Sequence record: NC_041874.1
Reading direction: 5' to 3' (one strand)
Source of the DNA: Escherichia phage JMPW1
DNA: 49,628 nt
Part shown: piece by piece, positions 42,399-45,974 of the stretch
Numbering within the stretch: position 1 is the stretch's first letter
Layout of the letters: every line of letters begins with the position of its first letter
Notes under the pieces: generated by a model
What the model was told of the DNA's origin: nothing
The model's input: the letters and a program-made list of their open reading frames with translations, nothing else
Database searches by the model: none
Translations under genes and position numbers: made by a program

Positions 42399-42575
42399 AT
42401 GAAGCTAGTTAAGTGCATCCGAAATGATTCCAAAACGCTTCCATTCCGCGTAAATCAGATCTATAGTGTTGGTTATGATTTCGGTGGTGGATTATTTGAG
42501 GTTTACGACGGGAGAGGCTCGGCAATCCATGTTCCTCTGAACGGTCACTACCTGGAATTTATTGAGATAGATTAA
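42399..42575 (+). CDS. small paralog-family protein (58 aa)
   Basis: ATG 42399 after RBS AAGAGG; MKLVKCIRND...VGYDFGGG...VYDGRG matches dispersed family. Confidence 0.5.
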   Translation: MKLVKCIRNDSKTLPFRVNQIYSVGYDFGGGLFEVYDGRGSAIHVPLNGHYLEFIEID

Positions 42576-42693
42576 CAATAGCATTCATCACCTTACAGGC
42601 TGGCATGATTTAGATGCTGGCCTTTTTGCGTTGTGTCAAATAAATTTGAAGGTTAAAATCAACTCACTTGTTCAAAAAATATATGGTGAGATT

Positions 42694-42909
42694 ATGAAAG
42701 AATTTTTAACCGCAGCTACGTCTAGCACGGGCGGGGCTTCATTAGTGGGGGCGGCGACCGGGCAGCTTTATATTGCTGGCGCTACATTCATTTGCTTTCT
42801 GCTTTTTGGTGCTTGGGGCGCATACTGGAAGTATCGTGATAGCAAGGCGATTCAGGAAGCGTTAAACGATGGCGATCTAAATAAGGCACTTAAGATCAGG
42901 GGGAGATAA
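42694..42909 (+). CDS. holin (pinholin-like, two TMDs)
   Basis: 71 aa; Gly/Ala-rich TMD1, hydrophobic TMD2, charged C-terminus; directly upstream of endolysin. Confidence 0.55.
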
Positions 42910-43397
42910 TGAGCTTAAAAAATAACGTTATAGGCGCATCGATCGGGGCTGCTTTGACGTTGACGCCTACCCTGCTGGAACGAATCGAAGGGATAGAATA
43001 CGAGGTGTATTACGATATAGCCGGAGTCCCTACCGTATGCAGCGGAATAACCGGGCCGGACGTCATACCTGGTAAGAAATACACTAAGCGAGAATGCGAT
43101 GCATTGCTGATAAAACATATCGGCGTCGCTCAGCGATACGTTGACAAAAAGGTGAATGTTGATATTCCGGTAACGATGCGCGCGTCACTGTACAGCTTCA
43201 CTTTCAACGTCGGTACTGGCGCGTTCGGATCTTCTACAATGCTTAAGCTAATAAATCAGAGTAAGCACAAGGAAGCGTGCAATCAGTTATGGCGATGGGT
43301 ATACTACTACAACCCAAAAACCAAAAAGCGCGAAGTGTCTAGAGGACTAAAGAACCGACGCGCTGAAGAATACGCGTATTGCGTTAAGGAATTATGA
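42909..43397 (+). CDS. endolysin, lysozyme with N-terminal SAR-like signal-anchor
   Basis: [19 protein letters not shown] and VDIP...RASLYSF.FNVGTG.F resemble phage P21 R lysozyme (from memory); hydrophobic Gly/Ala-rich N-terminus. Confidence 0.8.
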
Positions 43398-43798
43398 TGA
43401 AACTGAAGAAAACGTGCATTGCGATTGCAGTGGCTGTTGGCGTTATTTCCCTATCCGGTTGTTCGACGGCATCTGCCCTGAGCGGTTTAATCGGATCTAA
43501 ACCGGAAGTTACAGCACAAATCGGAGAGGAGAACACAAAGCAATTAGCAGGAGTAACCGCAAAATCCGAAGATAAGCGAGATGTTAAAGTTGAGAAGTCC
43601 AATGTAGGAAAGATTGACTCTTCCTTGAAGAAGTCAATTGAAGTGTCAACCATTAAGGCTAACACGGTTAACGCTGAAAGCATCACAGTAACAAAACCGG
43701 AAAACTGGTACGATGCTATCGTTGGCTGGATTCTCGTTTTTATCGGTCTATTGCTGGTTTATTTTTCACTTCGTAAGGACGAAAAAAAGGAGGCTTAG
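43394..43798 (+). CDS. unimolecular spanin (u-spanin)
   Basis: N-terminal lipoprotein signal with lipobox LSGC plus C-terminal TM segment; overlaps endolysin stop. Confidence 0.6.
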
Positions 43799-43812
43799 CC
43801 TCCTTTGTTATT
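43783..43812. terminator. bidirectional intrinsic terminator between convergent blocks
   Basis: GGAGGCT-T-AGCCTCC stem flanked by A7 and T-rich tracts. Confidence 0.6.
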
Positions 43813-43919
43813 TGTACCTTTTTACGTTAAGTAGTAACTCCCCATCCTGGTCGCAAAGATTATGCTCGCTTTCGTTACTGGCCCTCATTGAAGTGAGCAA
43901 CAGACTCAACAACCCTTGC

Positions 43920-44327
43920 TCAAATTCTTCTTTCGTAAGCTGGAGCCTTGCGCACAATTCGACGTTCCGATCTATCAATGTTTCTACGTTCTCCAAACAA
44001 ATCCTCATCACTCATCTCTCCAATGTGCATCATTTCCCACGTATACCGATTGTTGTAGCCATCAATACACATCAGCTTCATCATTACCGGGCGCTTAATC
44101 TTTCCCTTGCACCAGTAAAACCCATCCCTGCAATCAAGATAACCCTCAGTTACACAGCGTGAGCAAAACTCCTTAGATAGCGCGCTTGTAAATTCACGGC
44201 GAGTCATTCCTGCGGCCTTAGCAAATCGCTCACTTTCCTTGTGGGCGTATATAAATTTCGCTATGTGCTGTCGAGTGTATTTGTCGTAACCTTCGCAGAA
44301 CCTGAACAGATCTAAAAGAAGAAGCAT
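43920..44327 (-). CDS. Cys-rich hypothetical protein (135 aa), possibly zinc-binding
   Basis: Multiple Cys (CEGY, CSRC, C..C); last gene of minus-strand operon. Confidence 0.45.
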   Translation of the reverse strand: MLLLLDLFRFCEGYDKYTRQHIAKFIYAHKESERFAKAAGMTRREFTSALSKEFCSRCVTEGYLDCRDGFYWCKGKIKRPVMMKLMCIDGYNNRYTWEMMHIGEMSDEDLFGERRNIDRSERRIVRKAPAYERRI

Positions 44328-44331
44328 ATTA

Positions 44332-45900
44332 TTAACCCATCAGTCGAGGGTTGATGAAAACAATATCATCAATCCGGCAAGTGTAGTTCATCTCTTCGAG
44401 CGTGATCAGCAGGCTGTCGATTCGCTCAGATACTTTCTGTTGACCGTTGAACGGCGTAACGTTCCGGCACTTTGCAACGATGCTATGAATAGGTGCGCGG
44501 CCTTTGTTCTTCTTCGCGATCTCAGTGATAACATCAATCAGCTTACGAGATTCAGCCTCATCACCTGCATACCCGGCAGCGCTGGCAGATGACAGGTAAG
44601 TCCTGGAAAGCTCATTGAAGATCATGATCGCTTCCTGCATTGTTTCAAGGTCAATCTCACGATTAGATCGGTTCGGTGATTCACCCTCCCAATTCTTGAT
44701 CGTGTGAAGAACTGAAGCAATGCGCAAAGCGTGCTTATCGAACTTACCGAGATGACCGCGTAGCATTGAGTGAGAGTATTTGCCCCCGGCGGCGAAATCA
44801 GGCTCCATCGCCTGGCGAGCAAGGTTTAATTCACGCATAGCGTTACGGCTTACAGAGAGAACGACGTTGTCCTCCTTCATAATGTTGTGCACGAGTCTGT
44901 AATATTTGCTAACCAGTCCGCGATCTACTTCCTTATACAGCGCATCACCATTTTCATCGCAAAGAATACGAGTACCTAAAAGCGGTTCCTCTCGAACCAG
45001 GAGGAAACGCTCAGATACACCGATACCGCGCTGGCCTGCGTCCATGATACCCTTGATTGTTTCATCCTGCGCAATGACGCAGATCGAACCGACCGGGCAA
45101 AGAGATAAGTTGTTGTCCTGATTTGAACGCGCGACCTCCATATGGTTTTTATCCCACGCCTTAAGAATAAGCTCGCTGTTTGATTTCTTATCAGAACCGC
45201 CATAAGTCAGACCAAGCAATGTATTGATTGCCGTTGCTTCATCAGATATTACGGAAAAGTGGCCTTGAACAGCCGCAACTTTCGCAAGACCTTCAGGTGT
45301 AGGATCTGATACCGCGAAAACAATATCAGCCATCTTCTTGATCTTTTCTTCCAGTTTTTCCTTGTCTTCGTACAGAGCCGCCGTCGTGTTACCCTTTGGA
45401 TCGTTTTTTATTTCTTTCTCGACCTGACGTAGCTGACTGGTTAAACGTATGCGCTCCTTTTTGCGCTCTTCATTCAGTCGCTGAATCTCCGCACGCATAG
45501 GTGTAATCGCCGCTGAGTTAATAGCGGACTTACCTGTTGATGGTGGCTGGCTGATTACCATGTAAAGCGCGGTCGGCTGTTCTTCGCCGTGATATTGCAC
45601 CCAAAACTTCCCGAGCATAGCGGCTGAGATGCACCCAATGAAATGAGCGTACGCAGACGAAACAGGGAACTGTACAGACTCAGCCTTTGCCTTTGCATAT
45701 TCGAATACCAGGTTATCGCCACCTAACGAAATCAGCGGGAACTTATCGTTTCCACTGTTGATATCGATCGGATCTTGCCAAAACGAAACTGAATCCCCAT
45801 AGCTGTTTTCACGAATTGCGATCGACACCGGATTAACTCCAGTGCTATTTGCGATCTCAATAATCTGTTGGTAATTCAATTTTGGCTTAATATTAAACAT
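44332..45900 (-). CDS. large hypothetical protein with Walker A-like PPSTGKS motif (about 522 aa)
   Basis: Start moved to ATG 45900 (RBS AAGGAG); ORF-track start 45963 lies inside the box. Confidence 0.5.
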   Translation of the reverse strand: MFNIKPKLNYQQIIEIANSTGVNPVSIAIRENSYGDSVSFWQDPIDINSGNDKFPLISLGGDNLVFEYAKAKAESVQFPVSSAYAHFIGCISAAMLGKFWVQYHGEEQPTALYMVISQPPSTGKSAINSAAITPMRAEIQRLNEERKKERIRLTSQLRQVEKEIKNDPKGNTTAALYEDKEKLEEKIKKMADIVFAVSDPTPEGLAKVAAVQGHFSVISDEATAINTLLGLTYGGSDKKSNSELILKAWDKNHMEVARSNQDNNLSLCPVGSICVIAQDETIKGIMDAGQRGIGVSERFLLVREEPLLGTRILCDENGDALYKEVDRGLVSKYYRLVHNIMKEDNVVLSVSRNAMRELNLARQAMEPDFAAGGKYSHSMLRGHLGKFDKHALRIASVLHTIKNWEGESPNRSNREIDLETMQEAIMIFNELSRTYLSSASAAGYAGDEAESRKLIDVITEIAKKNKGRAPIHSIVAKCRNVTPFNGQQKVSERIDSLLITLEEMNYTCRIDDIVFINPRLMG

Positions 45901-45920
45901 CACAATAAACTCCTTAGTTG

Positions 45921-45974
45921 ACGGTGTGAATGATACACCGCCAATGGTACACGCGTTTTGCAAAAAGTGCTATT
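45921..45974 (-). promoter_or_regulatory. Promoter cassette, minus strand: box + IR CGGTGT/ACACCG
   Basis: Minus-strand box ATAGCACTTTTTGCAAAA (plus 45957-45974); hairpin plus 45921-45945. Confidence 0.5.

Follow-up and report, generated by a model that had tools for sequence, protein, structure and literature searches.

A T1-type lysis cassette in Escherichia phage JMPW1 encoding a pinholin-like holin, a SAR-like endolysin and a unimolecular spanin

Gene content and conservation of the cassette

Positions 42694-43798 of the Escherichia phage JMPW1 sequence (record NC_041874.1; the window is the whole stretch analysed, 49,628 nt) encode what is, with essential certainty, a holin–endolysin–u-spanin lysis cassette of the T1 type. 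Because the three predicted proteins are identical to their T1 counterparts at 71/71, 160/162 (99%) and 104/133 residues (78% over the full length of the spanin), we identify the open reading frames (ORFs) as the orthologues of T1 genes 13, 12 and 11, respectively, using record MN153797 as the T1 reference for both DNA and protein comparisons. The best explanation of the region, and in our judgement a probable one, is that it serves a T1-like siphophage as late lysis cassette, in which a SAR endolysin would be freed when the holin depolarizes the membrane and the u-spanin would act last.

The first-pass annotation had proposed a three-gene cassette at this place, and the ORFs are indeed found there on the plus strand, with PHROG and Pfam matches far beyond chance. 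The holin ORF (42694-42909, 71 aa, with a charged C-terminal tail predicted to be cytoplasmic) matches PHROG 2877 'holin' (E = 1.9e-38); the endolysin ORF (42909-43397, 162 aa, a GH24 or T4-type lysozyme) matches Pfam Phage_lysozyme (PF00959, E = 3.8e-33) and PHROG 7 'endolysin'; and the spanin ORF (43394-43798, 134 aa, or 133 aa for 43397..43798 when read from its second ATG) matches PHROG 1804 'Rz-like spanin' (E = 9.1e-48). At the gene junctions, stop and start codons overlap in the ATGA manner, and the genes 3' of the cassette lie convergently on the minus strand. An NCBIfam search matched no model to the holin, the spanin or the product of the upstream DUF7244 gene, and an Rfam search over the whole window returned nothing at threshold.

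The source genome is SH2-like and belongs to the genus Tunavirus of the Drexlerviridae. Across 42600-43850 it shows 100% nucleotide identity to Escherichia phage vB_EcoS_SH2 and four other Tunavirus records, the identical ones including IME167, phi2013 and vB_Henu5_2, and >90% identity to dozens more T1-like coliphages and to Shigella phages. The T1 genes have the same order, overlapping junctions, flanking hairpins and LSGC lipobox as those described here. The two cassettes differ in the spanin, where the periplasmic domain and the transmembrane domain (TMD) have diverged and the ATG at the gene start is doubled in JMPW1. Other Drexlerviridae cassettes (TLS, Stevie, Sushi, KanT1 and vB-EcoS_57-3) share the three-gene architecture, with proteins that are 41-65% identical.

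Counting codon differences from T1, we found 16 synonymous and 0 non-synonymous changes in the holin and 30 and 2, respectively, in the endolysin. As synonymous changes dominate, both frames are under strong purifying selection, their N-terminal hydrophobic parts included. The spanin gene carries 28 synonymous and 29 non-synonymous differences, the latter being concentrated in the periplasmic domain and TMD. Two minus-strand ORFs lying over the cassette (42915-43118 and 43384-43686) were rejected as genes, as they conflict with the pattern of synonymous substitution in the plus-strand frames. The gene identities, the homologies, and the sequence features and their conservation reported here are direct observations.

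Cassettes of T1 relatives have already been described in print in the same terms, as a pinholin with a SAR endolysin and a u-spanin (PMC6139136, PMC11447400, PMC13164509), and those of the other Drexlerviridae named above likewise, with a SAR endolysin called R21-like. The earlier interpretation of this DNA is thus supported and already known, and beyond correct annotation the cassette adds little, being a textbook T1 lysis cassette. Several public records give the holin a wrong start, which changes its length from 71 aa to 54 or 87 aa, or list the spanin as 'hypothetical'.

The endolysin is an R21 homologue with a SAR-like N-terminus

The best matches of the endolysin among PDB sequences are full-length R21 of phage 21 (3HDE, E = 7e-34), truncated R21 (3HDF) and RrrD of prophage DLP12 (4ZPU), with E values of about 1e-33; identity to R21 is 46%. 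A structure model built with AF2 from an alignment of 84 homologues reached a mean pLDDT of 89.6, and a Foldseek search of this model against the PDB again returned 4ZPU and 3HDE at the top, with TM scores of 0.81-0.84 over the full length. R21 and RrrD are true homologues that have the catalytic triad E-x8-D-x5-T in common with the JMPW1 enzyme, in which it reads from the sequence as E27-x8-D36-x5-T42 (42987..43034, plus strand); all three residues are invariant in the 84 aligned homologues. For the purpose of comparison, the EssD/RrrD pair of the E. coli prophage DLP12 was grouped with S21/R21 of phage 21.

N-terminal to this core lies a SAR-like segment (aa 7-23, V7 to L23; 42927..42977, plus strand). 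A single basic residue, K4, precedes it. Its 17 residues, rich in Gly, Ala, Ser and Thr, are all uncharged and give way to E24, the last of them lying four positions ahead of the catalytic Glu27; the segment is Cys-free and contains Pro20. These features, together with R21 and RrrD as the best matches in both sequence and fold, support the annotated SAR-like N-terminus on a lysozyme core resembling that of P21 R. We estimated hydrophobicity as a summed apparent insertion energy on the Hessa 2005 biological scale. The best 17-residue sum is +2.7 kcal/mol compared with +0.15 for R21, and the best 19-residue sum is +6.8 compared with +0.8. The R21 counterpart is longer by 8 residues and more hydrophobic; the JMPW1 segment can thus be called SAR-like, yet shorter and weaker than the prototype.

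Is such a weak segment unusual? In a sample of about 115 homologous database sequences (34-98% identity), nearly all members carry a basic residue somewhere in positions 2-8, and their catalytic Glu is immediately preceded by 15-20 residues without charge. Their 17-residue sums are mostly between 0 and +4, making the JMPW1 enzyme typical of its family. As this character is kept while the sequence itself drifts, the N-terminal region behaves as a membrane segment. Annotations of relatives vary in their reading of it, from 'SAR endolysin' and, in Sin4, 'weak N-terminal signal-anchor-release' to 'signal peptide found with Phobius' in vB_EcoS-95 and 'putative soluble endolysin' in Sazh.

The last of these labels corresponds to a soluble cytoplasmic enzyme whose N-terminal helix would be part of the fold and which a large-hole holin would release. 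In keeping with it, the hydrophobic run spans just 17 aa, includes a proline and is weaker than that of R21, and residues 3-27 of the AF2 model form one continuous helix that runs into the catalytic helix. However, soluble relatives such as P22 gp19 (2ANV) do not have the N-terminal extension, their alignment beginning at residue 21 of the JMPW1 protein, and the roughly 115 homologues preserve an uncharged, basic-tipped N-terminus despite sequence drift. Published expression experiments also argue against it. Expression of the endolysin alone, which the first-pass annotation had suggested as a check, has been reported for the 99%-identical T1 enzyme: under an arabinose promoter it lysed E. coli within 2 h in the absence of a holin, with an arabinose MIC of 0.1%, whereas the cytoplasmic T7 endolysin alone had no effect (MIC above 3.2%) (PMC10954549, 2024). 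Moreover, increasing doses of azide progressively inhibited lysis by 57_3Lys, a Drexlerviridae homologue from the genus Veterinaerplatzvirus (bioRxiv 10.64898/2026.09.09.750462). The endolysin of vB_EcoS-2005IV, which is close to 57_3Lys judging by the quoted N-terminal sequence of the latter, is 45% identical to the JMPW1 protein. We therefore regard a soluble, cytoplasmic endolysin as highly improbable.

Export could also be directed by a cleavable Sec signal peptide, leaving the enzyme free in the periplasm and controlled in some other way. Phobius predicts a signal peptide in the vB_EcoS-95 orthologue, and SignalP 6.0 does likewise for 57_3Lys. However, the uncharged run ends four residues before Glu27 within the same helix, so that cleavage would truncate the fold, and on reading the sequence we found no clear A-x-A site after the hydrophobic run. 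A freely secreted active lysozyme would, in addition, lyse the host prematurely. R21 keeps its SAR segment, which becomes part of the refolded, active enzyme, as Sun et al. reportedly found in 2009. This reading of the N-terminus is, in our view, scarcely credible.

Holin-independent export of the endolysin can be accepted, and membrane tethering is the likely means of its control. With R21 as a homologue, a conserved N-terminal layout and the two published experiments in support, we hold with good confidence that the enzyme reaches the periplasm by itself via Sec and is kept inactive on the membrane until depolarization. No direct experiment on the topology of gp12 was found in the literature searched.

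The holin resembles S21 in hydropathy but not in sequence

The holin is uncharged from F4 to W45 and then continues into the charged tail. Within this stretch we delineated two segments, which correspond to the Gly/Ala-rich first segment and the hydrophobic second segment noted previously. Segment 1 (aa 4-22; 42703..42759, plus strand) is weakly hydrophobic, rich in Gly, Ala, Ser and Thr and resembles a SAR domain, and segment 2 (aa 25-45; 42766..42828, plus strand) is strongly hydrophobic and predicted to form a transmembrane helix. Only three residues, TGQ, separate the two.

We compared this arrangement with S21, the proven pinholin of phage 21, using an S21 sequence that is 100% identical to the phage 21 record. 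Over 19 residues, segment 1 sums to +5.6 and S21 TMD1 to +6.4; segment 2 (aa 25-43) sums to +0.2 and S21 TMD2 to +1.0. Both proteins are 71 aa long, with a weak first segment, a strong second one and a basic C-terminal tail. The holin thus reproduces the weak-then-strong pattern of S21, and 'pinholin-like' is a fair description of it.

In sequence, on the other hand, the two proteins appear non-homologous. BLASTP of the holin against S21 gave no match, an hhalign comparison of their profiles gave a probability of 0.1%, and in Pfam the holin matched no holin family, whereas S21 matched PF04971 at 8.6e-36. Judged by these searches, the holin is not a member of the phage 21 S holin family PF04971. 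Further differences from S21 are the three-residue link between the segments, a TMD2 with fewer hydroxylated residues and the lack of a dual-start motif for an antiholin. A possible dual start is seen in TLS-type holins (M1RDFLLM7) but not in the JMPW1 holin.

Because of this missing sequence relationship, 'pinholin' is used for this holin by analogy and not as a demonstrated property; what suggests the name is the S21-like hydropathy pattern together with the partner enzyme. Among the seven family members sampled, every holin gene adjoins an endolysin with an N-terminal hydrophobic segment. Pairing with a SAR endolysin is no proof of a pinholin, however, since such enzymes also work with large-hole holins. 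In phage P1, the SAR endolysin Lyz is paired with LydA, a large-hole holin and not a pinholin, and a SAR endolysin working with a large-hole holin is likewise reported for phage N4. As a SAR endolysin could work with any holin that depolarizes the membrane, whatever the size of its holes, the pinhole claim is the weakest link of the proposed mechanism, and we lean only slightly towards pinholes over large holes.

It is unlikely, though worth serious weight, that the cassette and its exported endolysin operate with a holin that is not a pinholin. Such a holin would be either a large-hole protein or a protein with a single TMD (N-out, C-in) and a non-inserting N-terminal segment, and would trigger lysis by depolarization whatever its hole size. 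Besides the missing homology to S21 and the pairing of SAR endolysins with other holins, this would agree with the very weak hydrophobicity of segment 1 (+5.6), with the TGQ link as the sole connection between the segments and with the Sin4 record, which cites TMHMM as giving one TMD for the holin. In addition, the adjacent gene encodes a cytoplasmic SH3-like protein, which would need large holes if it acted on the cell wall. On the other side, S21, a pinholin proven by experiment, has a TMD1 that scores just as weakly on this scale. Residues G13, G14, T22 and G23, in or at the edge of segment 1, are invariant among seven members of the holin family, which argues for a specific role of the segment; together with the lack of any non-synonymous change relative to T1, this indicates that segment 1 is no disposable tail. 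Expressed alone, the T1 holin inhibited growth on plates and was weakly toxic but not lytic, whereas the large-hole T7 holin lysed cells slowly (PMC10954549). The non-lytic behaviour of the T1 holin fits a non-permeabilizing holin without proving one.

The pinholin-triggered, secretion-dependent lysis proposed in the first-pass annotation is therefore supported with two reservations: the SAR-like segment is weaker than that of R21, and the pinholin stands as an analogy. The label is widely repeated for T1 gp13, and in the literature searched it is a prediction throughout; the pinholin (class II) assignment of T1-family holins is given as such in PMC11447400, PMC4319613, PMC6139136 and PMC13164509, and we found no report there or elsewhere in that literature that measured the hole size or topology of gp13.

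Other starts were considered for the holin gene. The SH2 record begins it at GTG 42745 (54 aa), a codon that reads GTA in T1, for which reason we take ATG 42694 and the 71-aa product as correct; the 17 codons upstream of the GTG show synonymous changes only. Two TTG codons were rejected as starts, 42646 (giving 87 aa, the choice made in T1 record MN153797) and 42631, neither being preceded by a Shine-Dalgarno sequence.

The third gene encodes a u-spanin of the T1 gp11 family

The third gene had been read as a u-spanin from an LSGC lipobox and a C-terminal transmembrane segment. Both are present, and the protein proves to be an orthologue of T1 gp11 itself. A lipoprotein signal peptide (43397..43462, plus strand) begins with MKLKK, continues with a hydrophobic core and ends in the lipobox L19-S20-G21-C22 (nt 43451-43462), LSGC also being the lipobox of wild-type gp11 (PMC6139136). 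As Ser and not Asp follows C22, the protein carries no inner-membrane retention signal. G21 and C22 do not vary among 10 members of the spanin family, including those of Autographiviridae podophages of Klebsiella and Pectobacterium, and tblastn found relatives in 1126 phage records. The periplasmic domain has about 80 residues and is Cys-free, with no Cys anywhere after C22. Near the C-terminus, a predicted transmembrane helix (aa 107-125; 43715..43771, plus strand) is the most hydrophobic segment in the cassette (-2.7 over 19 aa) and is followed by the charged tail RKDEKKEA.

The T1 gp11 u-spanin family has been delimited at 40% identity over 40% of the length (Kongari et al. 2018), a level that the identity to gp11 exceeds; taken with the lipoprotein signal and the C-terminal helix, this makes the JMPW1 protein a member of that family. 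Family u-spanins are without periplasmic Cys, and gp11 complements lambda Rz/Rz1 mutants (PMC6139136). The same study reports that the cassettes of all gp11-family members but two encode a pinholin and a SAR endolysin, and that spanins evolve fast, which matches the divergence seen here relative to T1. The T1 spanin was found to be toxic (PMC10954549). Disruption of the outer membrane by the JMPW1 spanin would follow by analogy, being reported for T1 gp11 and carried over to a 78%-identical variant. This single-chain arrangement contrasts with phage 21, which has a two-component, embedded Rz/Rz1 spanin. The u-spanin of T1 is the prototype of its kind and has been studied since 2007.

The start of the spanin gene is most likely the second ATG at 43397, giving 133 aa, because T1 has the second ATG only and because the Shine-Dalgarno sequence TAAGGA is better spaced for this codon. 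Four candidate codons for internal in-frame starts were inspected, and none had a convincing Shine-Dalgarno sequence; Kongari et al. (2018, J Virol) reportedly describe a shorter, inhibitory gp11 product. There is no embedded second spanin (o-spanin) frame. Only one further plus-strand ORF of 30 aa or more overlaps the spanin gene (43713-44162), and it was rejected as an o-spanin, as it starts near the 3' end of that gene, continues into the genes that converge on the cassette and lacks a lipobox.

Proposed order of events in lysis

Taken together, these features suggest the following pathway. The endolysin, a GH24 lysozyme of the R21 type, would be exported by Sec, with its weakly hydrophobic N-terminal helix (aa 7-23) holding it at the inner membrane. 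Because this helix reaches to within four residues of the catalytic Glu27, the tethered enzyme would stay inactive. Meanwhile the 71-aa holin would build up in the inner membrane and trigger at a set time, collapsing the membrane potential. Upon depolarization, the N-terminal helix would leave the bilayer, and the enzyme would refold and degrade the cell wall. The spanin would be anchored in the outer membrane through the lipid on Cys22 and in the inner membrane through its C-terminal helix. Once the restraint of the peptidoglycan is gone, it would disrupt the outer membrane, probably through fusion of that membrane with the inner one; its place as the last actor, after loss of the peptidoglycan, is taken from published work on gp11. 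For the T1 proteins, direct support comes from the complementation by gp11 and from lysis by the endolysin without a holin. Tethering and release of gp12 are steps that we infer, as is, above all, the small size of the holes.

Flanking hairpins and the upstream DUF7244 gene

Hairpins lie at both ends of the cassette. Upstream, between the DUF7244 gene and the holin, a terminator-like hairpin (42597..42623, plus strand) has a 10-pair stem followed by a T-run, TTTTTGCG. It is kept in T1 save for one loop base, and an annotated terminator occupies the corresponding position in the record of phage Sin4. We take this hairpin as the putative 5' boundary of the cassette, presumably acting as a terminator; a sigma-70 scan found no promoter between it and the holin gene. 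Downstream, a bidirectional terminator-like hairpin on both strands (43786..43806), with a 9-pair stem, overlaps the spanin stop codon and stands between the cassette and the convergent minus-strand genes. This one, too, is conserved in T1, and terminators are annotated at the same place in the Sin4 record.

The DUF7244 gene (42399..42575, plus strand) encodes a 58-aa SH3-like protein that matches Pfam PF23896 (E = 4.6e-28). The gene is present in JMPW1, and among 522 Drexlerviridae it lies beside the lysis cassette in 188, about a third (PMC13164509). Its product is a proposed, unproven accessory of the lysis module. A further reading, which we consider quite improbable, assigns it a larger part: the T1-type holin would be a separate class unrelated to S21, whose Gly-rich N-terminal segment never spans the membrane and acts from the periplasmic side, and the DUF7244 protein would be a fourth lysis component. 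In that case it may, for example, regulate timing by binding the cytoplasmic tail of the holin, in place of the missing dual-start antiholin. The surroundings of this gene differ between the two phages: in T1 an HNH homing endonuclease gene lies upstream of it, whereas in JMPW1 it is directly preceded by a DNA-repair exonuclease gene.

Start codon of the holin gene and its upstream neighbour

Public records differ in where the holin begins: it is a 54-aa protein with a GTG start in the SH2 record (NC_047828, locus L001, 3146-3310) and an 87-aa protein with a TTG start in one phage T1 record (MN153797, locus L002, 750-1013). T1 has GTA at the position of the SH2-record GTG, and the codons upstream show only synonymous changes between the window and T1. 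The GTG start is thereby ruled out and, judged from this codon comparison, the ATG giving a 71-aa holin (window 42694-42909) is the correct start. Directly upstream lies a plus-strand gene (42399-42575) for a 58-aa protein matching DUF7244 (PF23896, E = 4.6e-28), with a terminator-like hairpin (42597-42623) between this gene and the holin. DUF7244, described as a 'standalone SH3 domain', was recently proposed to be an accessory to the Drexlerviridae lysis module (PMC13164509). The protein is without a signal sequence. A pinholin, the type predicted for this holin, would pass no protein, which fits poorly with a cytoplasmic DUF7244 protein that binds the cell wall.

Divergence of the spanin

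The spanin gene (window 43397-43798) shares 80.7% nucleotide identity with that of T1 (L002, 1501-1902), with 29 non-synonymous and 28 synonymous codon differences. The neighbouring holin and endolysin genes are far less diverged, at ~93% nucleotide identity to T1 and 0-2 non-synonymous differences. The patch of the spanin that differs most from T1 is aa 32-45, directly after the lipobox. At the sequence level, this divergence points to relaxed or diversifying selection, or else to a recombination patch. The stop codon of the spanin gene falls within a perfect 9-bp hairpin (43786-43806) that has a terminator score on either strand. Facing the cassette across it, on the minus strand, are a gene at 43920-44327 and a DUF3987 gene with a helicase annotation at 44332-45963, and the putative terminator is common to the cassette and these convergent genes.

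Related proteins in other phages

Unimolecular spanins of the T1 gp11 type, 30-40% identical, are also carried by Autographiviridae podophages, including Klebsiella phage SU503 (Drulisvirus; locus L009) and Pectobacterium phage PPWS1 (locus L010). In these two phages the gene order is spanin-holin-endolysin, whereas that of the window cassette is holin-endolysin-spanin. Among the endolysin homologues, a 141-aa protein of Shigella phage vB_SsoS_008 (P0101), annotated as 'endolysin', starts with residues encoded ahead of the holin, followed by the N-terminal part of the holin itself, yet nonetheless matches lysozyme and PF27028 domains. A wrongly assigned start codon, a frameshift or a misassembly in the vB_SsoS_008 record may account for this composition.
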